Shown here: positions 8,478 to 23,495 of the stretch, piece after piece
How the letters are laid out: each line of letters starts with the position of its first letter
Numbering within the stretch: position 1 is the stretch's first letter
Assembly: GCA_965223865.1 (NCBI GenBank)
Contig: OZ245020.1
Coordinates: forward strand, 1,792,001 to 1,856,000
Source of the DNA: Nitrosarchaeum sp.
Lineage (GTDB): Archaea > Thermoproteota > Nitrososphaeria > Nitrososphaerales > Nitrosopumilaceae
Reading direction: 5' to 3'
DNA length: 64,000 bases
Notes under the pieces: generated by a model
Databases searched by the model: none
The model's input: only the letters and a program-made list of their open reading frames with translations
What the model was told of the DNA's origin: nothing
Position numbers and translations under genes: made by a program

Positions 8478-8744
8478 TTGCAGGAGGTAGGCGAAATAAT
8501 GCACCTAGCCGGTAGTGGCAGAGTAATTATTCAACTATCAAACAAATTAGTTGAAGGGCAAATTCTCTGTGACGAGAAGGGAACTAGAATTGCAAAAGTA
8601 ATGGAATTAATTGGTCCAGTAAAAAGACCGTTTGCATCAGCAACTCCATTAACAAATAACATCAAAAAATACATTGGCAAAAGTGTTTTCGCAACTGAAT
8701 ATTCTCCTGCTAAAATACAAAAAAATAGGAGAAGAAAAAATTGA
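8478..8744 (+). CDS. gar1: H/ACA RNP protein Gar1
   Basis: V.ELIGPV.RP.A motif; conserved position before tfb. Confidence 0.85.
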   Translation: MQEVGEIMHLAGSGRVIIQLSNKLVEGQILCDEKGTRIAKVMELIGPVKRPFASATPLTNNIKKYIGKSVFATEYSPAKIQKNRRRKN

Positions 8745-9697
8745 ACATATTACAAACACAAAACTGTCCTGAATGTCAATCATCATTAGTTGATGACATT
8801 CAGAATGGAGAAGTTATCTGTTCTGGTTGTGGCGTAGTTGTTGCAGATCAGATTGCAGATTATGGTCCAGAAACCAAAAGCTCAAATCTCGAAGACAAGA
8901 TGAAGCTTGCAAGAGCATCCGGACAAACGACATATTCACAACATGACTTGGGAATTGCAACTGAGATATCAATTAGTTCTAAAGACTTCAGTGGAAAAAC
9001 AATCAATCACGACGTTGCAAATCAAATGCACAATCTCAGAAAATGGCAACAAAGAGTAAGAGTTTCCTCACCAAGAGAAAGAAGACTAGCAAATGTGTTA
9101 TCAAAAATGGGTGAAACATGTGACAGTCTAAATCTTTCAAAAAATGTTTTGGAAACTGCATCAATGATTTACAGAAACTTGGATGGACATGTTGATGTAA
9201 AGGGAAAATCAGTAGCAAGTATTACAGCTGCTACAATTTACATGGCATGTAAGCAATGTGATGTAGTAAGATCACTTGAAGAAATTTGTCGAGGAATATG
9301 TGCACCAAAAGATGTTAAATCAAAAACAAAACTTGCAGCAAGGTACTATAGAACTATGGTAATGGAAATGGGACAACTTACAGCACCAGTAGTTACCATG
9401 GACAAGTACATCTCAAAAATTGCAAATATGACGCAAACCGAAGTTAGAGTTGAAAGATTAGCTTTGGAAATTGCTGAAAAAACCAAAGACAGCAGTATTG
9501 CTGATGGAAAGGCACCAAACGGAATTGCAGCAGCATATCTGTATGTAGCCTCGGTGTTATTGGGACAAAATGTCCTCCAAAGAGATGTATCCAGTATTGC
9601 AGGCGTCACTGAGGTAACCATCAGAAATAGATGTAAAGAGATTCTAACAAATTACAAACTCAAAATTACTTTGAGACCATCTCTGGCCAAATACTAA
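8741..9697 (+). CDS. tfb: Transcription initiation factor IIB (TFB)
   Basis: Zn ribbon CPEC..CSGCG, two cyclin folds, GVTEVTIRNR HTH. Confidence 0.96.
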   Translation: MNILQTQNCPECQSSLVDDIQNGEVICSGCGVVVADQIADYGPETKSSNLEDKMKLARASGQTTYSQHDLGIATEISISSKDFSGKTINHDVANQMHNLRKWQQRVRVSSPRERRLANVLSKMGETCDSLNLSKNVLETASMIYRNLDGHVDVKGKSVASITAATIYMACKQCDVVRSLEEICRGICAPKDVKSKTKLAARYYRTMVMEMGQLTAPVVTMDKYISKIANMTQTEVRVERLALEIAEKTKDSSIADGKAPNGIAAAYLYVASVLLGQNVLQRDVSSIAGVTEVTIRNRCKEILTNYKLKITLRPSLAKY

Positions 9698-10734: not shown

Positions 10735-11412
10735 ATGGAACCTAATGATGATGAAAAATATTATTTTAATTTCTCATTCTTCCAAATAGATCCCAAATGG
10801 AGATGGATGGCAGACCTTGCAAAAGAAGAATCTGCAAGAGAAGTAGAGAATGTTATAAAAAATTCAGGAATTAAATTTAGATCTTATTCAACATTAGGAT
10901 TACGTTCAGATGCAGACTTTTTGTTTTGGTTTGCTGCAAAATCAATTGAAGAAATTCAAAATGCCATTTCTAAACTGTATCTTACGGTTTTTGGAAAGTA
11001 TGTAATTCCCACACAAACATACATTTCATGCACAAGACCATCAATTTATGCAAGAAAAGGAAGGATAATCTCATTTGTTGCAGGAAATGAATCAAAAAAA
11101 TATGTCATTGTTTATCCTTTCACTAAGACAAGGGAATGGTATCTATTACCACAAGAAGAAAGACAAAAAATGATGGATGAACATATTGATGTCAGTCAAA
11201 AATATCCAGATATTGTTCTAAATACAACATACTCTTTTGGAATCGATGATCAGGATTTTATGTTAGCATTTGAAACTGACGAATTAAGAGATTTTCAGGA
11301 TCTAATAATGGATTTGAGAGAAACAAAAGTATCCAAGTACGTTAAAGTAGACACCCCAATGATTCCTTGCGTAAAAAGAGACATCATGCCTCTAATAGCC
11401 AGTTTAGGCTAG
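10735..11412 (+). CDS. Chlorite dismutase-family heme protein (ChdC/HemQ-like)
   Basis: YPFTK..EWY..ER..MM.EH, YSFGIDDQDF; no distal Arg. Confidence 0.85.
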   Translation: MEPNDDEKYYFNFSFFQIDPKWRWMADLAKEESAREVENVIKNSGIKFRSYSTLGLRSDADFLFWFAAKSIEEIQNAISKLYLTVFGKYVIPTQTYISCTRPSIYARKGRIISFVAGNESKKYVIVYPFTKTREWYLLPQEERQKMMDEHIDVSQKYPDIVLNTTYSFGIDDQDFMLAFETDELRDFQDLIMDLRETKVSKYVKVDTPMIPCVKRDIMPLIASLG

Positions 11413-11521
11413 AAATTGAAACTCACTGATGCAAATATTGGATAAACATAAATGAAGAAATTTTATTGAAAAATTAGTTTGGAAGAACTAAGTCTTTCAA
11501 AATGAAATCAAACGATGTAAA

Positions 11522-12520
11522 ATGAAATACAAAAAACTAGGTAAAAGTGGAATTAAAGTATCAGAGATAGGATTTGGAGCATGGACTATTGCTCTAGATT
11601 GGTGGGGCAAGAAAATTGAAGAAGATGAAGCAAAACGTATGCTAAAAAAAGCCTATGATTTAGGAATTAATTTCTTTGAGACTGCAGATATGTATGGAAA
11701 GGGCAAAAGTGAAAAATTAATTGGCGAAGTATTCAATGGAATGAGAGATGAGATTGTAATATCTACAAAATATGGATATGATTTCTCAGAAGCAGATCAG
11801 ATTGGTCATGCAGAGCTTCCTCAAAATTTTGATAAAGAATTTACACGAAAAGCACTCAATGCATCACTTGAAAGACTACAAACAGACTATTTAGACTCTT
11901 TTGGATTACACAATCCTAAATTAAATCATATTAGAAATTATTCAACTTTTGATACTCTTGATGAGTTAATCAATGAAGGTAAAATAAAATCATCACAGGT
12001 TGCATTAGGTCCCGCTATTGGATGGACACAAGAGGGTTTGGAGGCAATGGACAGAAAAAGTGTTTCTGCAGTTCAAACAGTGTACAATATTTTAGAGCAA
12101 ACACCGGGGAATGAATTGATTGAAAAAGCTGAAAAACAAGATGTTGGGATTTTAGTTAGAGTTCCAGATGCATCAGGTATTCTTACTGGTAAAGTTAAAG
12201 CAGAAACTATCATTCCAAGTAATGATCATAGAAAAGACAGAAAAGTTGAATGGAGAAAATCTGCATTACAAAAAGTAGAACAGTTCAGACCAATTGCTGA
12301 ACGGAATGGATTAAACATAACTGAATTTGCAATAAAGTTCATACTCTCAAAAAAGTCAATCGCATCAGTATTACCTACAGTTATTAACGAAGAAGAGATT
12401 GAAACATTTGCGTCTATCTCTGATGGAAACTATCTTAGTTCCTCAGACATGAAAGAGATTGATGATTTGTATAATACATGGCCTCCATACGAATTAAAGG
12501 CTACGCCTCAAGCTAATTAA
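11522..12520 (+). CDS. Aldo/keto reductase
   Basis: LGKSGIKVSEIGFG, FFETADMYG.G.SE, SLERLQTDY. Confidence 0.93.
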   Translation: MKYKKLGKSGIKVSEIGFGAWTIALDWWGKKIEEDEAKRMLKKAYDLGINFFETADMYGKGKSEKLIGEVFNGMRDEIVISTKYGYDFSEADQIGHAELPQNFDKEFTRKALNASLERLQTDYLDSFGLHNPKLNHIRNYSTFDTLDELINEGKIKSSQVALGPAIGWTQEGLEAMDRKSVSAVQTVYNILEQTPGNELIEKAEKQDVGILVRVPDASGILTGKVKAETIIPSNDHRKDRKVEWRKSALQKVEQFRPIAERNGLNITEFAIKFILSKKSIASVLPTVINEEEIETFASISDGNYLSSSDMKEIDDLYNTWPPYELKATPQAN

Positions 12521-12526
12521 TCGCTA

Positions 12527-12865
12527 ATGGACAAATCAATGGATAAAGAAAAGACAATAGAAATCATAGAAAGACTCAAGCTAGCAAAGATAGGAGATTA
12601 TAAAAAATGGGAATTAATAATTAAAAAAATTAAAACGGATATTCCATTAAATTTAGGAGAAATTGAATATTTTTCAAACTTGACAAGAATTTACAAAGAA
12701 TCAACGATTTCAAAAAGAACAAGAATTTATCACACAAAATTATCAGAATACGATAAAAAACCACCCTGCCAGACTTGTGGGGATTTTTCAGAATATTATT
12801 GCAACATGAATGACCAATACTTTTGTTTAATTCATGTAGTAGGGCATGACGATAATGAAATTTAG
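12527..12865 (+). CDS. Hypothetical protein with C-terminal Cys/His zinc finger
   Basis: CQTC..YYC..FC..H..H. Confidence 0.65.
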   Translation: MDKSMDKEKTIEIIERLKLAKIGDYKKWELIIKKIKTDIPLNLGEIEYFSNLTRIYKESTISKRTRIYHTKLSEYDKKPPCQTCGDFSEYYCNMNDQYFCLIHVVGHDDNEI

Positions 12866-13878
12866 GAAGCAGGAATTGTTTCTTCTAGGTTAAAATCATT
12901 TTCAACAAAGTATTCGACTCTAGTTTTTTTGAATTCACGAGAGCTAAACAATATCTTGTAGTCATCAACATTAATTTGATTTTGAATAGTTTGAGCCATC
13001 TCTTTAGCTTCCTCATGGGTTTTACAATGAATCATAGAAAATACATTGTATGGCCAATCAGGATACGTTGGTCTCTCATAGCAATGACTTACTTGAGGAA
13101 ATGCTCCAAGTTTTCCTCCAACTTCAGAAATTCTATCTTCAGGAACCTTCCATACAATCATTCCGTTTGCAGTAAAGCCAACTTGCCTATGTCGAAGAAT
13201 TGCGGCAAATCTTCGCATTACTCCAATACTTTCATAGTATTTCATTTTTTCAAATAGATGTTCTTCAGTTATGCCTAGATTATTTGCAGCTTTTACAAAG
13301 GGTTCATCAATAATTTCCATATCTTTTTGAAGTTCACGAATGAATTTTTTGTCAGTTTCATTAGGTTCAAATTTTATGTTTTGAATTTCTTTTTTCTGTT
13401 CAGTTGGTGCAACTTGATGTTTTTTTTCATCAACCATATCTAGTTTTACACCTATTTTGAATAATTGAAGAGTTGGTAGCATTCGGACTTTTTTTATTCC
13501 TTTTAGCACATTGAATTTTTCAAGTTCTGTTTTCAAATCAGAACCAGGTGGTACAGCTAAAGTAAACCATAGATTAAACTGATGGTCACGCTCATAATTA
13601 TGACTCACACCAGGATGTCGATTAATTTGACTTGCTACATATTCTAATTTTTTTGGCTCAATCTCCATTGCGACAAGAGAGCTGGTATAACCTAATTTTC
13701 TTGTATCAAAAATAGCGCTTAGTTGTCGCAATACACCTGATTTTTTGAGGTCATTCATACGTTCTTTAATAATTTCTGGAGTCGTTTCAAATTTTTTTGC
13801 TATAGCTTCAAAGGGTCTGGTAACAAGTGGAAAAGTCCATTGAATTTCGTTTAGGATTTCTTTATCCAACTCATCCAT
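12862..13878 (-). CDS. Siroheme decarboxylase, fused AhbA-AhbB (Lrp/AsnC-like)
   Basis: Two Lrp-like halves with SHNYER and SHCYER..WPYN motifs; divergent from sirC-hemA. Confidence 0.9.
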   Translation of the reverse strand: MDELDKEILNEIQWTFPLVTRPFEAIAKKFETTPEIIKERMNDLKKSGVLRQLSAIFDTRKLGYTSSLVAMEIEPKKLEYVASQINRHPGVSHNYERDHQFNLWFTLAVPPGSDLKTELEKFNVLKGIKKVRMLPTLQLFKIGVKLDMVDEKKHQVAPTEQKKEIQNIKFEPNETDKKFIRELQKDMEIIDEPFVKAANNLGITEEHLFEKMKYYESIGVMRRFAAILRHRQVGFTANGMIVWKVPEDRISEVGGKLGAFPQVSHCYERPTYPDWPYNVFSMIHCKTHEEAKEMAQTIQNQINVDDYKILFSSREFKKTRVEYFVENDFNLEETIPAS

Positions 13879-13981
13879 TGAGGCCAATAAGTCAGTAACT
13901 AGTCTATTCAATTAAAAACTTAGCTAGAATTTTACGCCTCAGTTTTTAATACATAAATAGAAACTGTCGTCTTTTTGATCG

Positions 13982-14635
13982 ATGATAGTTGATCTGAACC
14001 TCCAAGGTAAAAAAGTAATTATCATCGGAGGCGGAAATGAAGCACTAAAGAGAATAAATTCATTGTTAAAACAACAATGCGATGTATTTGTAATTAGCAG
14101 TAAAGTAAATTCTCAGATTATCAAACTAGCCGAATCTAAAATAATAAAATTAAAAAAAATGAATATGGCTAATGTATCTATTCTTTCTAAATACAAACCA
14201 CATGTAGTAATTACTACTACAGATGACAGAAAATTGAATCAGGAAATAATAGAGTATGGGAAAAAAAATAAAATTATTACGTATAGTTCAGATAATCCAG
14301 ATGATAGTGATTTTGCAAATCCTGCAGTAATAGATATTGAAAACATCATACAAATTGCAATTTTTACTGGTGGAAGGAGTCCAGTAATGTCAAAAAAGCT
14401 GAAAATAAAATTTGAAGAGATTTTTAAAAAATCCGTAACAAAGGAGGAAATTGATCAAATTAAAATTCAAAAGATCGTCAGGGAGTTAGCCAAAGACAGA
14501 ATATCCACTCAAAAAAAGAGAAAAGAAGTTCTAAGCAATATTATGGCTGATAATGAGATTGATCAGTTAATAAAAGACGGAAAATTGAAAAAAGCTGAAA
14601 AACGGGCAATTACAATATTGAGAGATTGGGAATGA
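13982..14635 (+). CDS. Precorrin-2 dehydrogenase (SirC / CysG N-terminal type)
   Basis: IIGGGNEA Rossmann motif, DF.NPA, IAIFTGGRSP. Confidence 0.88.
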   Translation: MIVDLNLQGKKVIIIGGGNEALKRINSLLKQQCDVFVISSKVNSQIIKLAESKIIKLKKMNMANVSILSKYKPHVVITTTDDRKLNQEIIEYGKKNKIITYSSDNPDDSDFANPAVIDIENIIQIAIFTGGRSPVMSKKLKIKFEEIFKKSVTKEEIDQIKIQKIVRELAKDRISTQKKRKEVLSNIMADNEIDQLIKDGKLKKAEKRAITILRDWE

Positions 14636-15894
14636 AGCAAAACATCATAAATGCAAGGGTAACTTTTCGTGGATCTCCAATTCATGTTTTAGAAAGATTT
14701 ACAATTAGAGATTTAGAGGGAGCATATGAACAATTTAAGAAACACTCAGGATTAGATGAGTGTGTAATTATTCAGACGTGTAACCGAATTGAATTGTTTG
14801 GAAAATCAAAGGAATGTAATGCTGAAAAGATCAAAAAGACATGGGCATCATTGACGGGTTTAGAGGAAGAAGCATTCAAAGATAATTTAGAATTAGTTGA
14901 AAATCAACAAGCATTTCATCATCTTCTAAAACTCACATCAGGATTAGATTCAATGGTACTTGGAGAAGAACAGATTTTAGGCCAAATTAAAAATTCCATC
15001 ACAGAGGCAAGAAGTATCAAAGCATCAGGTCAGCATCTCAATACTCTTTTTGACAAAGCAATTAGAATAGGAACACGAATTAGAAATACCAGCGGTATTG
15101 GGCGAGGAGGAATTTCTGTTGGTTCTATGGCAGTAAAATTAGCAGAAGAAAATATTGATGAGTTAAAATTTAAAAAAATATTACTGATTGGAACAGGAGA
15201 AGTTTCAACTCTTGTTGCAAAATCCCTTCAAAGAAGAGGATATGGTTTTTCAGTAACTAGCAGAACTCTTGAAAGATCGAAGGCATTTTGTGAAACAATG
15301 GGAGGAAAGCCAGTTAAATTTGAAGATGTTTTATCAGGATTTGAAAATTATGATGTACTTTTTGTAGCAACTACTGCACCATACTTTCTTGTAACATATG
15401 AAAGGATTACAAATGCCATGAAGGAAAAGAAAACAGGTATGATGATTTTGGATTTGTCAAACCCTAGAACAGTAGATGAAAAAGTAGCAACTATTGGAGG
15501 TATTAAATTAATGAATCTTGATCAAATTGCTGAAATGGTTGAAAAGAATATGAATGCACGATTAAACAAGGTAAAAACCGTTGAAAATATAATTAATGAA
15601 GAAGTATCAGTTCTAGAAGCCTCAATGAAAAGACTAGATGCCGAACCACTCGTTAAAGATGTTTTCAAAAACATAGACTCTCTTAGAATAAAAGAATTAC
15701 AAAAAGCACTGCATATGCTTGATGAAAAAGATGAGAAAAAAATCAAGATAATTGAAGAGTTAACAAAGGCAGTAGTAGAAAGTATAGTATCTACTCCCAT
15801 GAACAATATTAGAAAGGCATCTGAGCAAGGAGATCCTTATGTTATTGAAATGGCAAGCAAATTATTTGACTATAAAAAGAGTCAATTAGACTAG
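14626..15894 (+). CDS. hemA: Glutamyl-tRNA reductase
   Basis: TCNRIE, GLDSMVLGEEQILGQ. Confidence 0.97.
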   Translation: MGMKQNIINARVTFRGSPIHVLERFTIRDLEGAYEQFKKHSGLDECVIIQTCNRIELFGKSKECNAEKIKKTWASLTGLEEEAFKDNLELVENQQAFHHLLKLTSGLDSMVLGEEQILGQIKNSITEARSIKASGQHLNTLFDKAIRIGTRIRNTSGIGRGGISVGSMAVKLAEENIDELKFKKILLIGTGEVSTLVAKSLQRRGYGFSVTSRTLERSKAFCETMGGKPVKFEDVLSGFENYDVLFVATTAPYFLVTYERITNAMKEKKTGMMILDLSNPRTVDEKVATIGGIKLMNLDQIAEMVEKNMNARLNKVKTVENIINEEVSVLEASMKRLDAEPLVKDVFKNIDSLRIKELQKALHMLDEKDEKKIKIIEELTKAVVESIVSTPMNNIRKASEQGDPYVIEMASKLFDYKKSQLD

Positions 15895-15919
15895 GATTAT
15901 ATTTTACCCTAAAGGATTT

Positions 15920-16906
15920 TTGAGTATGTCTTTTCCTATGAGACGACTTCGTAGATTAAGAACTTCTTCAAAAATGAGGGAGTTGGTACAAGAGACTAGT
16001 TTATCACCAAGAGATTTCATTTGCCCAGTTTTTGTTCAAGAAGATCTAAAGACAAGAATTAAAGTAGAATCAATGTCAGAGATAGAACGATTGCCTCTTG
16101 AAGACATTAATGATGAGGTAGGAACAATTTCAGATTTAGGCATACCTGCAATTATGTTATTTGGAATTCCAAGTAACAAAGATGAAGCTGGTTCATCAGC
16201 ATTTGATGATAATGGAATTGTTCAAAAGGCAATTTCCCAGATTAGAAAAAACTTTGGAGATAAAATGGTGATTATGGCAGATGTATGTCTGTGTCAATTT
16301 ACATCAACAGGACACTGTGGAATTATTCAAGGAAATAAAATCGATAACGATACTAGTTTGGACACTTTAGCAAAAATAGCCGTAAGTCAGGCAAAAGCAG
16401 GTGTTGATACTGTCTCACCATCTGCAATGATGGATGGTCAAGTAGCTGCGATTAGAGAAGCTCTAGACGGTGAAGGGTTTACTGATGTATCTATAATGTC
16501 ACATTCAGCAAAACATCGTTCTGGGTTTTACTCACCTTTTAGAGATGCTGCGGAATGTGCACCAAAATTCGGAGACAGAAAAACATACCAAGTTCCTTTC
16601 ACAAATGCAAGAGAAGCCATGTTGGAAGTTCAAACTGATATCAATGAGGGGGTAGATATTGTAATGATTAAACCAGCTTTATCATATCTAGATCTTATTT
16701 CAGAAACTAGAAAGAGATTCGACGTTCCAGTTGCAGCATACAGTGTTTCAGGAGAATATGCATTAGTTAAAGGAGCAGCAAAACAAGGTTGGATTGATGA
16801 AAAGAACATCACAGAAGAAATACTATATTCCATTAAAAGAGCAGGTGCAGACATGATTGTGACATACTTTGCAAAATCAGCAGCAACATTTCTTCAAAAA
16901 TCATGA
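15920..16906 (+). CDS. hemB: Porphobilinogen synthase
   Basis: DVCLCQFT.TGHCG, PSAMMDG, MIKP, AYSVSGEY. Confidence 0.97.
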   Translation: MSMSFPMRRLRRLRTSSKMRELVQETSLSPRDFICPVFVQEDLKTRIKVESMSEIERLPLEDINDEVGTISDLGIPAIMLFGIPSNKDEAGSSAFDDNGIVQKAISQIRKNFGDKMVIMADVCLCQFTSTGHCGIIQGNKIDNDTSLDTLAKIAVSQAKAGVDTVSPSAMMDGQVAAIREALDGEGFTDVSIMSHSAKHRSGFYSPFRDAAECAPKFGDRKTYQVPFTNAREAMLEVQTDINEGVDIVMIKPALSYLDLISETRKRFDVPVAAYSVSGEYALVKGAAKQGWIDEKNITEEILYSIKRAGADMIVTYFAKSAATFLQKS

Positions 16907-17257: not shown

Positions 17258-18166
17258 CTATTGCTCCAAGTTTAATGGAATAGATGCACTTCCATACGGT
17301 TCAGAGATTCTAAAGACATAATCTTTTGAAGAATCATAGATGAATTGTGTTCCACCATATCCAATATTTGGACCAAACAACATGTTGAATATTGCAGACT
17401 CTCCAGATTTCAGAACAATTTGCCCATTTGTAAAATCCATGCCAGAATACTTGAATGCCTTTTCACCATTCCAAACATCATAGTTACATACAGCAGGACC
17501 AGTACACATCATGGAAATATTATCTGATGAGCCATTATTTTCAGCTAGCATTCTAATTGAAAGAATTGCCTGACCAGATGGAGAAATTTCAAATGAATTT
17601 CCTTCACTTCCAAGATCGGCCCAATAATAAGTCAATGGTCCTACTTGGAAAGACTGACCATTTGTTTTTATTTTGTAAGCTTCAATTTGATGCTCAGCTG
17701 CTTTTTCACAGTTTAGTCTAGGATATGCTTTAGTAATCTCAGAACATTTTTCAAGCTCTGTTTCAAGGGAAGCTAATTTTGAATCATTAGTTGCTGATTG
17801 CATTGGAGCTTCAACTACAGGTTCAGAAGTTGAAACAGAGACAATACCAGTTTTTATCAGATGTTGAATTCCGTTAACAAATTCACCATCAGAAATTGTT
17901 CCATCAGCCCACCATCCTGCATTGTTTTTTACCCAAGCTGGTACACCTTCAGACGATTCAGCAGATACTGTTGTTGGAGGAACTACAATAATACCATCTT
18001 CTATAAGGAATTGAATCCCTTGTACAAATTCTGATTCAGAAATTGTTCCATCAGCCCACCATCCTGCATTGTTTTTTACCCAAGCTGGTACTTCTTCAGC
18101 ACTTGCAAAAGAAGTAATTGATCCTACTAAGAGAATTGCTGCAATTGTGGTTATTGTGGTTTTCAT
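17258..18166 (-). CDS. Secreted protein with two thaumarchaeal VPAWVKNNAGWW modules and a C-terminal beta-rich domain
   Basis: Signal peptide ending ASA, two ~49-aa repeats, Cys pairs. Confidence 0.85.
   Translation of the reverse strand: MKTTITTIAAILLVGSITSFASAEEVPAWVKNNAGWWADGTISESEFVQGIQFLIEDGIIVVPPTTVSAESSEGVPAWVKNNAGWWADGTISDGEFVNGIQHLIKTGIVSVSTSEPVVEAPMQSATNDSKLASLETELEKCSEITKAYPRLNCEKAAEHQIEAYKIKTNGQSFQVGPLTYYWADLGSEGNSFEISPSGQAILSIRMLAENNGSSDNISMMCTGPAVCNYDVWNGEKAFKYSGMDFTNGQIVLKSGESAIFNMLFGPNIGYGGTQFIYDSSKDYVFRISEPYGSASIPLNLEQ
17889..18091. repeat. Intragenic direct repeat of 56 identical bp (17889-17944 and 18036-18091)
   Basis: tcagaaattgttccatcagcccaccatcctgcattgttttttacccaagctggtac occurs twice, 147 bp apart. 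Confidence 0.9.
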
Positions 18167-18188: not shown

Positions 18189-18224
18189 TATTTAAGCTGG
18201 TGCCAATAATTTGTCTAGTGCTAA
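18189..18224 (-). promoter_or_regulatory. Promoter with TTAGCACTA box (secreted protein gene)
   Basis: Minus strand TTAGCACTA-N20-TTAAATA; second copy TTGGCACCA inside the spacer. Confidence 0.7.
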
Positions 18225-18250: not shown

Positions 18251-18288
18251 TAGTGGTAAACAAAATTTTCCATATTGGGCTTTTTATG
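18251..18288 (+). promoter_or_regulatory. Promoter with inverted box (DUF1722 gene)
   Basis: TAGTGGTAA-N21-TTTTTATG. Confidence 0.5.
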
Positions 18289-18310: not shown

Positions 18311-18868
18311 GTGAAGGAAAAGCAAGAATATTCCAATGTAGGATTGCCTGTTATTTCTGAGGATGATGTTAAAAATTATGTATTTGAGAGATTTGAAGAC
18401 GTTAAAAGGTTAAAAAAAATCAAAAATCTCGTGAATTTTCAGGCTATGAATAAGTACATGATAATGGCCCATAACCAAGAGCAACTCAAAAAGCTAGGAA
18501 ACATTGTAGCTAGTTATAAAAAAATCCCCTTTTCAGAAATTTTAGAGAGTTATGAAGAAAATCTAAGAATTGCTCTAAAGAAAAAACCAACCAAGAAAAT
18601 GCATACAAATGTAATTATGCATATTTTTGGACATTTTTCAAAAAAATTGAATCAATCTGATAAAGAATTGTTTTTTCAGTTATTAGAAGAATATAGAAAA
18701 GAAAAGATCAGCTTAGGAGATATTCTTGTAGAAATAAATCCAGTCATATTTAGATTCAACAATACCTATCTAGCTAGTCAGACCTACTTTTTATTATATT
18801 CAAACATTATTCCAGGAATTCCATTTCAATCTCTCAATAATGAAAACGTCATAAAGGATCTAAATTAA
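18311..18868 (+). CDS. DUF1722 (YbgA C-terminal-like) protein
   Basis: LV.FQA.NKY.IMAH....K.LG, H.NV.MH.FG.F, YL..QTY. Confidence 0.85.
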   Translation: MKEKQEYSNVGLPVISEDDVKNYVFERFEDVKRLKKIKNLVNFQAMNKYMIMAHNQEQLKKLGNIVASYKKIPFSEILESYEENLRIALKKKPTKKMHTNVIMHIFGHFSKKLNQSDKELFFQLLEEYRKEKISLGDILVEINPVIFRFNNTYLASQTYFLLYSNIIPGIPFQSLNNENVIKDLN

Positions 18869-18893: not shown

Positions 18894-18929
18894 TTAGCAC
18901 TATAAAATATAGTTAGCATTAGTTATATA
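18894..18929 (+). promoter_or_regulatory. Promoter with TTAGCACTA box (B12-binding regulator gene)
   Basis: TTAGCACTA-N20-TTATATA; second copy TTAGCATTA inside the spacer. Confidence 0.7.
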
Positions 18930-18950: not shown

Positions 18951-19793
18951 ATGGTATACATTAGAGCAAAGAAAGTAAAATCTGATCAATATCTTTATCT
19001 TGTCAAAAGTGTGTGGGATTCTCAGAAAAATACATCAAAACAAGAAATAATCAAGTATTTAGGAAAAGCATCTGATGTTGTAAAAGATGATATTCCTTCA
19101 GATTACAGAAATGATTCTAAAATATTATCTGTGTTGGCAAAATTTAATCCTAAAGATATTAAAAAAAGAGAAGATGCATCAAAAAAATCAAAACAGCAAC
19201 TATTTAAAAAATTAACAGAAGGAGATATTCAGGCTTCACTAAAGATCTATCAGGAATATACCAAAATTTTTGATACTCCAGATTTTTTTGATAAAATTCT
19301 AAAACCAGTAATGTATAAGATTGGAGACGATTGGGCTACTGGTAAAATCAGTATTGCAACAGAGCATGTAGCAAGTAATGTTGCACAAACCCTTGTTAAA
19401 ATTATAATGGATCAAGTTACTGGAAATGCCAACAAAAAGAAAGTCTTAATTTGTGTTCCTCTTGGAGAGGAACATCATCTTGGTTGTGACGTACTAGAAA
19501 CATATCTTTCAATTAAAGGATTCAAAGTATACAACATGGGAACATCAATGCCCACGGAATCTATTTTGAATTTCATCGATAACAACAATCCTGATGTAGT
19601 ACTATTATCAATAACCTTGGAGGATAATCTATCAGCAGGACAACGACTTGTAAGAAAGATCAAAGAACGATTTAACATTCCAATTTTGGTTGGCGGTTTT
19701 GCAATAGAGGGAGAAAATATCCCAAAGTTTGATGCAAAAATAATACCAAAATCATCACTAGAAGAAATCCCCAAGTTGATTAGAACAGCATAG
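18951..19793 (+). CDS. Cobalamin-binding protein with CarH/AerR-type photoreceptor signature and N-terminal basic beta-sheet domain
   Basis: Helix-bundle motif W-ATGKISIAT-EH (W-x9-EH); Rossmann EEHHLG (ExHxxG), LSIT, LVGG. Confidence 0.85.
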   Translation: MVYIRAKKVKSDQYLYLVKSVWDSQKNTSKQEIIKYLGKASDVVKDDIPSDYRNDSKILSVLAKFNPKDIKKREDASKKSKQQLFKKLTEGDIQASLKIYQEYTKIFDTPDFFDKILKPVMYKIGDDWATGKISIATEHVASNVAQTLVKIIMDQVTGNANKKKVLICVPLGEEHHLGCDVLETYLSIKGFKVYNMGTSMPTESILNFIDNNNPDVVLLSITLEDNLSAGQRLVRKIKERFNIPILVGGFAIEGENIPKFDAKIIPKSSLEEIPKLIRTA

Positions 19794-19801
19794 TTTATTT
19801 C

Positions 19802-21136
19802 TTATTTTTTTAAATAAGATTGTATTTTAGGCATGCAAAGAATAGAGCTATGGGCTGCTGAATCAGTACCTATTCCGTAACTAATAGTAGAATCCCCTAC
19901 AAAAAACAACCCCTTAATGCTAGGAATTTCATGTGGCATTTTTGATTTCCATACCAATCCAGGTTCTTTTACAACTGATTCCACAAGATTCCAAGCCATT
20001 GGGCGTTCCCAAAGTAGTGATTCCTCAAATTGAGGGTAAATCGAAGAGATTTCTTTTTTCATTGTATTTACGATCATACGTATTTGTTTTGGATCATCAG
20101 TGACAGAGGGATCTACTGGAGTTCCAGCAATTATCAAATGTTCTCCCGGAGGAGAAACTGATGAAGTAATGTTTGAAATGAAAAAAATTCCTTTTGTAGT
20201 ATAATTATCACCGACTGGAAAAACTACTTGTCTTGTATCAAGTTGAGATTTTAAGGCAAAATGAACCTCTACTACTGCAGTTTTTTTGTTTAACTTGTTT
20301 ATCTCTTTTACAAATTTTTCATCAAATACATCTCTGTCAAACAATTGATTAATTGCCATGTAAGCAGGGTAAGAAATCACAACACAGTTTGTCGGAATAA
20401 AATCATTACTGTTTGTTACTATTCCTGTTACTTTAGAATTTTCAATAATAATTTTTTTTACAGAGCAGTTTAGCTCAACATTACCATCATTTTCTTCAAT
20501 GTATTGGGCCAAAATTTTTGAAATTGAATCATATCCACCGTCTTCAGGATAAGCAAATTCACTTGTTCCTCCTTTGAAAGGATTGGCACGGATTATTGTC
20601 CTTGCAAATTCACCTAAAGAAATATGATCAACAGTATCAGCAAAAGCCAACATGCATACTGCCTCAAAAAATGCATTTGTTTCAGGATCTAATTTGGAAG
20701 TTATTTCTTTTAGAGAAAGGTTATCCCATTCTTCTGTTTTTTCAATGGAGGTAAAAGCCATCGGGAGAAGTACTTTCAAAAGTTTGATTCTACTTTTTAA
20801 TGGAATCAGAGAAAGGCGTAAAAGGTCATTCATTCCTTTAGGATATTTGTGAAATCCTGAATCAGAATGAAAGGCAATATTGTCAACTTTGGCAAGTTTT
20901 AGTTTTGATTCAATTTCTAATGATTTTAAAACAGTGAAAATTGCAGATTTTTTGTAAAAGGGCATAATATGAAAGCCATTATCTAGAATATGGTTTTTAA
21001 ATTTCATAGAGGCAGTTCTGCCACCTAATTTTGAGGATTTTTCAATAATTCTTACAGGATGTCCTTTTTGTGCAAGCATAGCACCTGTGGTTAGTCCACC
21101 CACTCCTGCTCCAATAATGTAAATGGGTTCCCTCAT
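19802..21136 (-). CDS. FAD-dependent oxidoreductase, phytoene desaturase/amine oxidase superfamily
   Basis: IIGAGVGGL..EK...LGGR, DNGFH, YP.DGG...I, GLFFVGD. Confidence 0.88.
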   Translation of the reverse strand: MREPIYIIGAGVGGLTTGAMLAQKGHPVRIIEKSSKLGGRTASMKFKNHILDNGFHIMPFYKKSAIFTVLKSLEIESKLKLAKVDNIAFHSDSGFHKYPKGMNDLLRLSLIPLKSRIKLLKVLLPMAFTSIEKTEEWDNLSLKEITSKLDPETNAFFEAVCMLAFADTVDHISLGEFARTIIRANPFKGGTSEFAYPEDGGYDSISKILAQYIEENDGNVELNCSVKKIIIENSKVTGIVTNSNDFIPTNCVVISYPAYMAINQLFDRDVFDEKFVKEINKLNKKTAVVEVHFALKSQLDTRQVVFPVGDNYTTKGIFFISNITSSVSPPGEHLIIAGTPVDPSVTDDPKQIRMIVNTMKKEISSIYPQFEESLLWERPMAWNLVESVVKEPGLVWKSKMPHEIPSIKGLFFVGDSTISYGIGTDSAAHSSILCMPKIQSYLKK

Positions 21137-21157: not shown

Positions 21158-21194
21158 TATTTATGCAGGTGCCAAATAATTTACATAGTGCTAA
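21158..21194 (-). promoter_or_regulatory. Promoter with TTAGCACTA box (FAD oxidoreductase gene)
   Basis: Minus strand TTAGCACTA-N21-ATAAATA; second copy TTGGCACCT inside the spacer. Confidence 0.7.
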
Positions 21195-21644
21195 CTATTT
21201 GGACAAATTATAAGAATTAAATTTCTCAGTAGATTTAATAAACTGATCCATTACTGAACTCATCTGATTTGCAAGATAATCTTCTAAGAATCCAAATAAC
21301 TTGAAAAATCCATTTAATCTTAATCTTACATCAATTGAAATAACTGTTCCATCATCAGATTTTACATATGACTCTACAAATACAGTCCCCTTAGTAGGCC
21401 CACTAAGAATATAGATTTCGTGATTTGAGGGTTTTTTAATTACATGTTTTGTTTTTATTTTTAGGGGAATTCCAAGAAATTTTATTTTTTCTAAAACAAT
21501 TTTTTCATTCTTTGTTTGTCTAATGATTTTTAATGATTTAAAATAATCAGGCATTACCTGATGAAAATTTTCGACATCAGTACTTAAATGAAATATTCTT
21601 TCTTGAGATAATGAAGAATTTCTCGTTAGAGTAAAATGTTTCAT
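21195..21644 (-). CDS. SRPBCC/START-fold (polyketide cyclase-like) protein
   Basis: IF.L.TDVEN..Q.MP pattern, GPTKG, C-terminal helix. Confidence 0.75.
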   Translation of the reverse strand: MKHFTLTRNSSLSQERIFHLSTDVENFHQVMPDYFKSLKIIRQTKNEKIVLEKIKFLGIPLKIKTKHVIKKPSNHEIYILSGPTKGTVFVESYVKSDDGTVISIDVRLRLNGFFKLFGFLEDYLANQMSSVMDQFIKSTEKFNSYNLSK

Positions 21645-21647
21645 ATC

Positions 21648-21824
21648 TTAATCACTATTTTCAGATAATGAGAAATTTGTTTGTATATTTTCAAGGTTAT
21701 TGTAATTACTTTTTTTGATTTTCAAGCGAACTAAGGATGAAAGACAAACGTTCAGTTTTTTTGGATTTTCATCAGAATTCAAATTTTTTGTAGATTGGGA
21801 CAGGAAAGACAATTCAGTAATCAT
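21648..21824 (-). CDS. Putative 58-aa microprotein
   Basis: ATG 21824 to TAA 21648, directly upstream of SRPBCC, behind a boxed promoter; low complexity. Confidence 0.35.
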   Translation of the reverse strand: MITELSFLSQSTKNLNSDENPKKLNVCLSSLVRLKIKKSNYNNLENIQTNFSLSENSD

Positions 21825-21840: not shown

Positions 21841-21876
21841 TATTTATGAAGAAAAGAAATTATTTCATAGTGCCAA
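21841..21876 (-). promoter_or_regulatory. Promoter with TTGGCACTA box (microprotein-SRPBCC unit)
   Basis: Minus strand TTGGCACTA-N20-ATAAATA. Confidence 0.65.
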
Positions 21877-21909: not shown

Positions 21910-21945
21910 TTAGCACTAGATTATAATTTTTAGGACATTAAAATA
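21910..21945 (+). promoter_or_regulatory. Promoter with TTAGCACTA box (21968/22133 unit)
   Basis: TTAGCACTA-N19-TTAAAATA. Confidence 0.62.
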
Positions 21946-21967
21946 TCTTAAAAAAGAAAAACAAGCT

Positions 21968-22123
21968 ATGGAAGAAAATCTTTCAATTTCATATGGAGTT
22001 GAATCAGGTTATGCGATGATTGAGAATAAAGAGTTTGGTTTGATTGAAAACATCTCAAAGGTGTTATCTAAAGTAAGAGAACTTGAGAGCCAAACAGCAA
22101 TAGTAATTCAAGTCTCAGGATAA
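21968..22123 (+). CDS. Putative 51-aa microprotein (MEENLSISYGVESG...)
   Basis: ATG 22 bp after a TATA box; protein-like composition; 9 bp before the next ORF. Confidence 0.55.
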   Translation: MEENLSISYGVESGYAMIENKEFGLIENISKVLSKVRELESQTAIVIQVSG

Positions 22124-22132
22124 AAAACTAAA

Positions 22133-22363
22133 ATGAGTAAATTAAAACCATATAGACCAAGCATCATAACAGCATTTGGAGTAATCTTTTTGATTTCAGC
22201 AATAATTATTCCAATTCAAAATTTGATTGTGTGGGGTCCAGATTTTGTGATGGAGTTTTACACATCGTCTCAAATAACTTCAGAGAAAATATCAATTGGA
22301 GTGATTGCATTTGGTCTTGCATTAATTTTGATAGGTTATAAAAAGCAAGTCTATGTTGAATAG
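22133..22363 (+). CDS. Small membrane protein (2 TM)
   Basis: Two hydrophobic segments in 76 aa. Confidence 0.7.
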   Translation: MSKLKPYRPSIITAFGVIFLISAIIIPIQNLIVWGPDFVMEFYTSSQITSEKISIGVIAFGLALILIGYKKQVYVE

Positions 22364-22374
22364 AAGTTTAATAA

Positions 22375-22410
22375 TTACCACTAGTTACAAAAACAAATCT
22401 GGCTTAAATA
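22375..22410 (+). promoter_or_regulatory. Promoter with TTACCACTA box upstream of the second tfb
   Basis: TTACCACTA-N20-TTAAATA. Confidence 0.6.
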
Positions 22411-22589
22411 ATTTTAAAACCAAATTTAATTATGATAGTAAAATCATCTTACCAAGAAAAAAACAGAAATTCATTAGTATATGTAAATTCTAAAATCAAA
22501 ATTTGTATTAATTATAGTAATTACAAAATAAAATTTCATGAGTTTGGAGTATCCTGTAAATATTATGGAGAACCATTTTGGAGGATAAA

Positions 22590-23495
22590 ATGTTAACCGA
22601 ACTTGTGCATCAACAAAATTGCAACAAAAATAAAATAATTACAGATTTAGATACTGGGGAAATTGCATGTAGTAATTGTGGTGCAGTATCACATGAAAAA
22701 CCAATTGAATTTGGACCAGAAATTTCTGGAATTACAAAAGAAGAATATCTTAAAACATCTCGAGTTGGAAGGAAAATTTCATTAAAAATAGCCGATATGG
22801 GCTTATCGACAATAATAGAGTCACAAGATAAGGATGCTACTGGAAAGTACTTATCAAAAGAGAATCGTAGAATGTTTTATCGCCTTCGTATGTGGGATAG
22901 AAATAGTCGTTCTGCAAATACTGTAAAATCATTGCAAAAAGCATTTCTTTTACTTGATGGAATTAGAGCAAAACTTAATCTTCCTGAACCAGTTGTAGAA
23001 CATACAGCCTATCTTTTTAGAAAAATTTCAGCAAAAAAAATTCTTAGCGGCAGAACTACTTCAGGAATTCTTTGTGCTACAGTGTACATTGCATGTAGAT
23101 TAACAAACACACCTAGAACCATACAAGATGTTGCCGATGCTGGAAATATCAAAAGAAAAAACTTACAGAGAATTTACAGATTTTTAATAAAAGAGCTAAA
23201 CATCTTTCCTAATGCATATAATCCACATGAATTTATTACAAGAATTTCAAAAACTATTAGCATTTCAGAAAAAACAGAAAGACTTGCATTTAACATTGTT
23301 TTGTTGACAGAAAAAATAGGAATATCTACAAGCAAGAATCCAATGGCAATGGCAGCAGCATCTATTCATTTGGCATCCTTGAAAAATAATGAAAAAGTTT
23401 CACAATTAAAAATTTCAGAGGCATCAGGTATAAGTGCTGTAACAATTAGGGATCGAGCAAAAGAGATCAAAGAAAGATTAGGAGGTGAAATTTAG
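22590..23495 (+). CDS. tfb: Transcription factor IIB paralog (alternative TFB)
   Basis: Zn ribbon (C..CSNCG), RLRMWD, cyclin repeats, GISAVTIRDR; GGAGG RBS before ATG 22590. Confidence 0.92.
   Translation: MLTELVHQQNCNKNKIITDLDTGEIACSNCGAVSHEKPIEFGPEISGITKEEYLKTSRVGRKISLKIADMGLSTIIESQDKDATGKYLSKENRRMFYRLRMWDRNSRSANTVKSLQKAFLLLDGIRAKLNLPEPVVEHTAYLFRKISAKKILSGRTTSGILCATVYIACRLTNTPRTIQDVADAGNIKRKNLQRIYRFLIKELNIFPNAYNPHEFITRISKTISISEKTERLAFNIVLLTEKIGISTSKNPMAMAAASIHLASLKNNEKVSQLKISEASGISAVTIRDRAKEIKERLGGEI

Follow-up and report, generated by a model that had tools for sequence, protein, structure and literature searches.

A stretch of 64,000 bp of the Nitrosarchaeum sp. genome (assembly GCA_965223865.1, contig OZ245020.1, positions 1,792,001 to 1,856,000; here called the window) contains a gene at 18951..19793 on the forward strand, a whole open reading frame (ORF) with an ATG start in the ORF list, that codes for a 280-residue candidate B12-sensor regulator (hereafter the regulator). 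We think it probable that this protein is a repressor that acts in the dark, dependent on 5'-deoxyadenosylcobalamin (AdoCbl), and that it is released by light. The proposal draws on the B12-binding half of the protein, on an N-terminal head related to part of the IS1634-family transposases, and on pairs of direct repeats that abut the TATA boxes of the regulator gene and of a set of other genes. The operator, the regulon and the phyletic pattern presented here are new beyond the initial annotation of the gene, which was made from the sequence alone.

The B12 sensor half

The homologue set of the regulator contains 2180 sequences at E≤0.001, and in 59 of the 150 listed representatives at 50% identity the match begins at residue 1–3. 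The close homologues are named as from Nitrosopumilus and Nitrosarchaeum, and the database names that they carry are inconsistent (e.g. 'cobalamin-dependent protein', 'histidine kinase', 'response regulator receiver' and 'MtbC1'). Two Pfam families match the regulator, B12-binding_2 (PF02607; residues 82–152, E 1.4e-10) and B12-binding (PF02310; residues 164–250, E 3.5e-13), and residues 1–81 have no Pfam match. A full-length AlphaFold2 (AF2) model, for which an alignment of 40 representatives down to 23% identity served as input, has a mean predicted local distance difference test score (pLDDT) of 93.7 and a predicted template modelling score (pTM) of 0.80. Three predicted segments follow the N-terminal head, all read on the forward strand: linker helices at residues 56–89 (19116..19217; AF2 helices 56–65 and 67–89), a four-helix bundle at residues 93–155 (19227..19415; from PF02607, AF2, conservation and the light-response signature described below), and a Rossmann-type B12-binding domain at residues 164–279 (19440..19787; from PF02310, the 40-member alignment and Foldseek).

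The initial annotation had pointed to the motifs W-x9-EH and ExHxxG, and both are borne out by the sequence and by its conservation. The first is WATGKISIATEH, which reads as W128-x9-E138-H139, and the second is EEHHLG, which reads as E173-x-H175-x-x-G178. All six residues (W128, E138, H139, E173, H175 and G178) are invariant in an alignment of 16 close homologues; the 40 representatives all share E173 and H175, and at least 90% of them keep W128, E138 and H139. By analogy with CarH, H175 is the proposed lower axial histidine ligand, and W128 together with E138-H139 would cap the adenosyl group. The accessible part of PMC11796333 (2024) describes an experimentally validated signature (GxxW, EH, GxxH and GxxxP) that sets light-responsive B12 domains apart, and all four elements, as given there, are present in the regulator: G125xxW128 and E138H139 in the four-helix bundle, and G172xxH175 and G197xxxP201 in the Rossmann-type domain. 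Judged by sequence and model, the two domains together carry every motif known to hold AdoCbl in CarH.

In a sequence search of the PDB the best match is photocobilin 8j2x (E 1.3e-12), TtCarH is matched at 2e-11 to 1e-10, and the AerR structure 7te2 is matched at E 0.0023. The Foldseek matches listed for the full-length model are, through rank 49, all B12 photoreceptor domains (TtCarH, photocobilin and the CtMerR B12 domain), those to the TtCarH B12 domains having an E value of 4e-13, a template modelling (TM) score of 0.83–0.86 (target) and a root-mean-square deviation of 2.6–2.8. Among the NCBIfam models the CarH equivalog NF052513 scores best, matching residues 78–272 only, with 67.6 bits against a cut-off of 400. 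This match over the C-terminal part, the Foldseek result and the complete light-response signature back the view, put forward in the initial annotation, that this is a CarH-type B12 sensor.

Database names such as 'methanogenic corrinoid protein MtbC1', and a score of 46.8 bits with the NCBIfam model pyl_corrinoid, would fit a corrinoid carrier of a methyltransferase system (MtaC/MtbC type). However, the cut-off for that score (pyl_corrinoid/TIGR02370) is 215.3, and the corrinoid-protein and MetH models of NCBIfam all score below the CarH model, every one of them under its own cut-off. No methyltransferase family was matched by any ORF inspected from 8.7 to 24.9 kb of the window, and the regulator combines the W-x9-EH cap with a conserved additional domain at its N-terminus and has operator-like sites. 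A role as a corrinoid carrier is thus highly improbable.

On every sequence and fold test the regulator comes out as having a light-responsive B12 domain, and its sequence suggests a CarH-like mode of action in a protein outside CarH/LitR, as it has no MerR head and scores below the model cut-off. The CarH/LitR proteins (TtCarH, PDB 5C8D/5C8E/5C8A; Myxococcus CarH) share with it the four-helix bundle and Rossmann domain, the W-x9-EH and ExHxxG motifs, and the layout with the DNA-binding head N-terminal and the sensor C-terminal. They differ in the head itself, which is a MerR winged helix in CarH/LitR and a predicted three-stranded beta-meander in the regulator. The photocobilins and the CtMerR B12 domain (8J2W/8J2X, 8JBT; PMC11796333, PMC10979010) have the same GxxW/EH/GxxH/GxxxP signature, include the best PDB sequence match (8j2x), and rank equal to CarH in structure; the regulator is without the biliverdin-binding, DGC, GAF, MEDS or HTH (helix-turn-helix) output domains of the photocobilin/SignatureFinder set, as far as the accessible part of PMC11796333 describes it. 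AerR/PpaA also uses a B12-binding domain for light signalling, as the 7te2 match reflects, and the similarity of the regulator to AerR is weaker than that to CarH. AerR/PpaA has no DNA-binding head and acts via a partner (CrtJ/PpsR), whereas the regulator has a conserved head and operator sites, which argues for direct binding.

The N-terminal head and IS1634 transposases

The N-terminal domain (residues 1–55, 18951..19115 on the forward strand, defined by AF2, conservation and hhalign) is the proposed DNA-binding head, a beta-meander with a conserved DIPxEYR tail after its strands. The N-terminal string YIRAKKVKSDQYLYLVKSVWDSQKNTSKQEIIKYLG corresponds to residues 3–38, and in the AF2 model three antiparallel strands (2–9, 12–23 and 28–39) are followed by short turns and a helix; modelled alone, the head has the same fold with a pLDDT of 94.4. 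No other part of the regulator is as conserved; the head contains 9 of the 13 invariant columns of the 40-member alignment (R5, K7, Y14, Y16, V18, Q31, Y36, G38 and P49), and there is one copy of the domain in this genome. A three-stranded beta module that is not a MerR HTH is what the initial annotation had described, and both parts of that description stand: the AF2 models have the strands, and no MerR or HTH family of Pfam or NCBIfam matched either the protein or an aligned set of 26 N-domains. In the Pfam scan of these 26 domains nothing was consistent (five families, with one member each), and in the NCBIfam scan CD1375_fam was matched in four members (E 7e-4) and the IS1634 model was not matched.

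The initial annotation also proposed a resemblance to the N-termini of IS1634 transposases, and this is recovered by hhalign, BLASTP and a search with a hidden Markov model (HMM). IS1634 transposases were taken from related genomes by a search with NF033559 (218–402 bits, cut-off 100), and in hhalign the alignment of the 26 N-domains matches the transposases from loci L103 (E 4.2e-8, probability 95%), L101 (E 7e-5) and L105 (E 2.4e-4). Each of these E values applies to one comparison, and the weakest of them, 0.032 with an alignment of nine IS1634 sequences of the first group, is not significant by itself; neither is the 0.16 obtained with the single sequence from L095. The best local match always falls on the first ~45 residues of the transposase. 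In BLASTP a family member (P0167) matches the L103 transposase with 19 of 42 residues identical (E 6e-7). An HMM of the N-domains, run on 401 genomes of the phylum, finds, apart from the regulators, nothing but the N-termini of frames of transposase size (468, 498 and 571 aa, including two of the transposases compared by hhalign) and a few short frames. When regulator heads and transposases are aligned jointly, M1, R5, Y14 and G38 are invariant and Q31 is kept in at least 90%.

The segment in common is ~45 residues long (M-x-F/Y-x-R ... G-x-x-Y ... Q-x-x-I/V ... G-R/K) and lies at the extreme N-terminus of the transposases, as it does in the regulator. The transposases have a DDE catalytic domain and the regulator is without one, with neither a DDE nor an NF033559 match in Pfam and NCBIfam. 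The Pfam and NCBIfam scans missed the link because NF033559 starts after the N-terminal module, at residue 26–34 of the L095, L101, L103 and L105 transposases; the conserved N-terminal beta module of these proteins has no model in Pfam or NCBIfam. No IS1634 copy is matched by NF033559 in this genome, and a search for inverted repeats at the ends of the insertion sequence in L101 gave nothing interpretable. From these sequence comparisons we regard the homology between the head and the N-terminal module of IS1634-family transposases as real. Given this homology, the head would be a site-specific DNA-binding module common to a regulator and a mobile element, the DNA-binding role of the module in the transposases being assumed; that the head binds DNA is suggested both by this relationship and by a conserved operator that co-occurs with the gene.

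Other searches with the head produced no further relatives. The best score in an ESM Atlas features search was 0.83, under the lead threshold, and a three-stranded sheet of the AP2/integrase type, which we had considered, is absent from the structure matches listed but may still be a parallel. A tblastn search of the N-domain against 72,556 plasmids gave nothing at E≤10, and in a word-based search of longer proteins with the N-domain alignment the best 120 matches were all of the regulator family.

Direct repeats at TATA boxes

Words resembling CTAGTGCTAA cluster in the intergenic DNA around the regulator gene, and the operator consensus is two direct 10-bp repeats, TTRGCAYYAG, with a 19-bp period, upstream of a TATA box. 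The candidate auto-operator and promoter of the regulator is at 18894..18929 on the forward strand, identified from the sequence, from the layout of 78 loci and from a composite score of 39.4 bits. It has a distal repeat TTAGCACTAT at 18894–18903, a 9-nt spacer, a proximal repeat TTAGCATTAG at 18913–18922 and the TATA box TTATATA at 18923–18929. The ATG of the regulator is 21 nt after the TATA box, and the sequence suggests that the mRNA is leaderless.

Among 80 related loci, 78 had the gene start and 90 nt upstream of it (in the other two, L063 and L081, the sequence breaks off within the gene, and they were left out). In all 78 the gene strand reads TTRGCACTAK, a 9-nt spacer, TTRGCAYYAG and TTAWATA, with the ATG ~21–22 nt further on. 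The distal core CAC[CT]A served as the anchor of the alignment, so that its invariance follows from the procedure; no anchor was set on the proximal repeat or the TATA box. The information content is 1–2 bits in the repeats and the TATA box and below 0.6 bits in each spacer column. The same core precedes the regulator gene in 12 of 12 further loci, six of the Nitrosopumilaceae type and six in distant genomes of families f14, f8 and f13, where the regulator protein is 33–45% identical. In family f13 the repeats beside the regulator TATA box read in the opposite orientation (L092, G035:C29:1125-1153; G044:C1:36596-36624; G062:C8:34177-34205), which may reflect a divergent promoter that is shared or may be a sign of orientation tolerance.

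A rigid position weight matrix of 36 nt with fixed spacing found only three strong sites, and it was replaced by a flexible composite model (a repeat, 8–10 nt, a repeat, 0–2 nt, a TATA box) with three Markov-shuffled genomes as the null. With this model there are seven sites of 28–42 bits in this genome, against a shuffled maximum of 18.5. All seven lie in two islands, with an ATG 20–23 nt after each TATA box: three in the window, in front of the genes for the regulator, a CrtI-like oxidoreductase and a secreted repeat protein, and four in a second island (L001), 370 kb away. The exact 10-mer TTAGCACTAG has nine copies in the 2-Mb genome, eight of them in the two islands. Across 92 loci the model finds 289 sites above 22 bits, with a start codon at 21–22 nt for 207; the operator unit is two repeats, and few sites have a third with the same orientation (63 upstream repeat matches over the 289 sites). 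The proteins encoded behind these sites are the regulator (81 loci), the secreted repeat protein (58), the CrtI-like protein (35), an NmrA/epimerase-like protein (11) and several small zinc-ribbon proteins or proteins of unknown kind, which in this genome are located in L001.

The strongest operator of the genome is that of the secreted-repeat-protein gene, at 18189..18224 on the reverse strand together with its TATA box (42.1 bits). It consists of TTAGCACTAG at 18224–18215, a spacer, TTGGCACCAG at 18206–18197 and TTAAATA at 18195–18189, and the ATG at 18166 is 22 nt later; a third repeat, TTACCACTAG, is nearby at 18259–18250. The gene that it would control (17258..18166, reverse strand) codes for a 302-aa protein with a start resembling a signal peptide and no Pfam family, in which there are two PAWVKNNAGWWADGTIS repeats and a duplicated PAWVKNNAGWWADGTIS...GIQxLI module. 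The operator and TATA box of the CrtI-like gene are at 21158..21194 on the reverse strand (28.4 bits), with TTAGCACTAT at 21194–21185, a spacer, TTGGCACCTG at 21175–21166, ATAAATA at 21164–21158, and the ATG at 21136, 21 nt later. This second candidate target (19802..21136, reverse strand) is a 444-aa oxidoreductase resembling FAD-dependent amine oxidases and phytoene desaturases (PF01593, E 2.1e-29), for which all NCBIfam matches are under their cut-offs.

The repeats sit immediately upstream of the TATA box in what appear to be leaderless promoters, where transcription factor B (TFB) contacts the TFB-recognition element (BRE); the gap between the proximal repeat and the TATA box is 0–2 nt, i.e. 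the repeat is in the BRE position. In the proposed mechanism the B12-loaded protein would oligomerise in the dark, at least to a dimer, and two N-terminal beta-sheet heads of the oligomer would then bind the pair of direct repeats. Since the proximal repeat is in contact with the TATA box, the bound oligomer would cover the BRE region, where it would hinder TFB and the TATA-binding protein (TBP) and so block assembly of the pre-initiation complex. Green or ultraviolet-visible light would photolyse the Co-C bond, the oligomer would fall apart and the promoters would open. The identity of the cofactor, its photolysis, the oligomeric state, the binding of the repeats by the regulator and the sign of regulation are all what we infer here.

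Direct-repeat operators on the promoter and photoprotection genes in the regulon are features that CarH/LitR has in common with the proposed system. The CarH operator is three 11-bp tandem repeats, whereas that of the regulator is two 10-bp repeats with a 19-bp period. The promoters also differ, being of the sigma-70 type in CarH/LitR and of the archaeal TATA/BRE type read by TBP and TFB here, as do the genes: a carotenoid cluster is regulated by CarH/LitR, and photolyase and TFB paralogues are among the candidate regulated genes here.

Alternatively, sites in this position could be used for activation, with the regulator recruiting TBP and TFB instead of blocking them, either in the dark or after a light-induced rearrangement. 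Archaeal activators can bind upstream of the BRE and TATA box, and the repeats lie upstream of the TATA box and not over the start site; the inverted repeats of family f13 point to some tolerance of orientation. However, the proximal repeat lies on the BRE itself, which favours competition with TFB, and the precedent of CarH/LitR is dark repression (PMC9304148, in the part accessible). We consider activation unlikely.

Distribution across genomes and candidate regulon

Co-occurrence was scored in 201 genomes of the order, evenly drawn, with related genomes being non-independent samples; the regulator was found in 72 of them. A strict two-repeat pattern, which has six matches in this genome and none in three shuffles, is present in 55 of the 201, i.e. 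in 52 of the 72 regulator-positive genomes versus 3 of the 129 regulator-negative ones (G014, G057 and G128, with one match each). Within the family the corresponding numbers are 28 of 33 versus 0 of 17. The pattern has 119 matches in total versus 6 for a reversed-pattern control. In line with the co-occurrence, a congener without the regulator, G162, retains the CrtI-like gene with neither an operator nor a TATA box in front of it. In one genome the regulator gene is broken (G075:C1:1499973-1500391, reverse strand), being split into two parts, with a TAG within the matched stretch, and two operator pairs still adjoin it.

Photolyase genes (PF03441) are present in 20 of the 201 genomes, and 19 of these have the regulator, G054 being the exception. 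In eight genomes of two families the photolyase gene is less than 10 kb from that of the regulator; in G011 it directly follows the regulator gene in the same operon with a 1-nt gap, and in G096 and G175 a repeat is ~50 nt upstream of the photolyase start. Promoters with the repeats are those of the regulator, the CrtI-like, secreted repeat and NmrA/epimerase-like proteins, small proteins and TFB paralogues, with photolyase in several genomes.

The regulator might bind the repeats and yet sense cobalamin supply, or some other B12-linked state, instead of light. Its B12 domain also resembles the domains of MetH and of corrinoid proteins, a tetrapyrrole biosynthesis cluster lies 2–6 kb upstream of the gene, and two members of the 40-sequence alignment, P0143 and P0150, are without the W and the EH. 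We think this improbable, since the full light-response signature (in the form given in the accessible text of PMC11796333) is present and conserved, the regulon includes photolyase, no gene for B12 synthesis or transport is seen among the regulon genes examined, and all but one of the photolyase-bearing genomes have the regulator.

Several observations weigh against a light-released repressor that reads these repeats, in addition to the reversed orientation in family f13, the position of the sites upstream of the TATA box and the per-comparison E values of hhalign. Given P0143 and P0150, light sensitivity need not hold for every family member. In a VIA-align search of the head against 48,161 chains the best Z is 4.6 (ribosomal and PSRP-3-like chains) and none reaches 5, and the best Foldseek matches of the head have E 0.64 in the PDB and 0.069 in BFVD. 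The structural check of the head gave a confident beta-meander and no clear PDB relative, so that no DNA-binding fold of known structure clearly resembles the head as modelled. The strict pattern is missing from 20 of the 72 regulator-positive genomes. Regulator, operators and targets are for the most part gained and lost together as an island (the CrtI-like gene, too, is not found in four of five regulator-negative congeners), and the co-occurrence is therefore no proof that the regulator, and not for example a TFB paralogue, reads the repeats.

The repeats might instead be read by some other factor of the islands, for instance a dedicated TFB paralogue or a regulator that has escaped notice, with the B12 protein being only a member of the regulon and acting through protein contacts as AerR does on CrtJ. 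In favour of this, TFB paralogues are present in or next to both islands, some of them behind repeats, the co-occurrence is confounded by islands that come and go as blocks, and no solved DNA-binding structure is related to the head. However, N-terminal modules of DDE transposases recognise element ends, and it is with such a module that the head is homologous. Conservation within the protein is highest in the head, just as the core of the repeats is kept throughout the order; a pair of direct repeats with a 19-bp period is unlike a BRE; and a site on the promoter of the regulator itself in 78 of 78 loci is the usual mark of autoregulation. On balance we judge it improbable that another factor reads the repeats, and we retain the dark-state repressor as the probable function of the regulator.

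Other features of the window lie around these sites. An operator-like site with a degenerate proximal repeat is at 21910..21946 on the forward strand, below the composite threshold and recognised from its geometry in the sequence (TTAGCACTAG at 21910–21919, TTAGGACATT at 21930–21939 and AAAATAT at 21940–21946); the ATG at 21968, 21 nt later, opens the small ORFs 21968..22123 and 22133..22363. A weak half-operator is at 22375..22410 on the forward strand, with TTACCACTAG at 22375–22384, a degenerate proximal repeat and the TATA box TTAAATA at 22404–22410; an ATG at 22432 is 21 nt later, upstream of a TFB gene at 22578..23495. A weak single repeat, TTGGCACTAT (21867..21876, reverse strand), is upstream of an ORF at 21648..21824 and an SRPBCC gene at 21195..21644, both on the reverse strand. 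Directly upstream of the regulator gene and on the same strand is a DUF1722 gene (18311..18868, forward strand; PF08349, E 1.1e-35), which is noted for context only. In E. coli the DUF1722 gene ybgA adjoins the photolyase gene phr, and in L086 a DUF1722-like ORF sits between the genes for photolyase and the regulator. The tetrapyrrole cluster upstream is at 10735–16906 of the window and encodes a chlorite-dismutase-like protein (HemQ-type), an AhbAB-like siroheme decarboxylase, a precorrin-2 dehydrogenase-like protein, glutamyl-tRNA reductase and 5-aminolevulinic acid (ALA) dehydratase.

The second island (L001) also has genes for DNA photolyase, two Usp proteins, NmrA-like and PNPOx-like proteins and a TFB-type zinc-ribbon protein. 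It encodes in addition a 91-aa paralogue that consists of the four-helix bundle only (L001:4956-5231, reverse strand, which is G000:C1:1432956-1433231). This paralogue is 53% identical to residues 83–155 of the regulator, keeps the EH and has L in place of W128, and its gene is upstream of a Usp gene and the photolyase gene on the same strand; it could act as a modulator or anti-repressor that caps, or competes with, the B12 domain of the regulator. A protein with an adenylate/guanylate-cyclase domain is encoded at the edge of the photolyase island (L001:1117-1749, forward strand; PF00211, E 2.6e-10). Paralogues of TFB (TFIIB) in or beside the islands are at 22375–23495 and 8741–9697 of the window, L001:12591-13124 and L087:6870-7778, and some of them are behind a repeat, a sequence arrangement that suggests that alternative TFBs are themselves light-controlled and form a second tier.

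A broader proposal, which we put forward tentatively and with less confidence than the repressor function itself, is that the IS1634-type head and B12 photochemistry together form a master light switch of ammonia-oxidising archaea, which in the dark would block the BRE of a dedicated set of leaderless promoters. Light would release photolyase, genes for photo-oxidative stress and alternative TFBs, giving a two-tier cascade, and the patchy presence of the regulator across the order would mark lineages living in light.

We found no published description of this regulator. A literature search gave no paper naming both CarH and Nitrosopumilus; among papers on B12 photoreceptors in archaea or Thaumarchaeota, and among those on photolyase, photoinhibition or cobalamin binding in ammonia-oxidising archaea, no title or abstract opening deals with such a regulator. 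The accessible main text of PMC11796333 has no occurrence of archaea, Nitroso or Thaumarch and makes no mention of the head, and its Fig. S9 or network may include the family. The accessible part of PMC9304148 does not touch on such a regulator.

Ammonia-oxidising archaea are inhibited by light. Photolyase and photoinhibition in these organisms have already been the subject of publications (e.g. PMC9239080), and in the literature searched, much of it at the level of titles and abstract openings, we found no light sensor or light-controlled regulator for them; in the accessible text of PMC9239080 the terms 'B12-binding', 'cobalamin-binding', 'light-responsive', CarH and LitR are absent and 'photoreceptor' appears only in the reference list. 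If the proposal is correct, the head and sensor would provide a new compact green-light-controlled DNA-binding part for optogenetics and gene switches, and the N-terminal module of IS1634 transposases, which current models do not cover, would gain a function, the sequence-specific binding of a defined 10-bp site. The regulator would be the first light-sensing transcription factor of the Nitrososphaeria and the first B12 photoreceptor regulator in Archaea, extending B12 photoreception to that domain and to promoters of the TATA/TFB type. It would also explain why photolyase and its neighbouring genes travel together, and would provide a concrete sensor, operator and regulon for study in cultured Nitrosopumilus.

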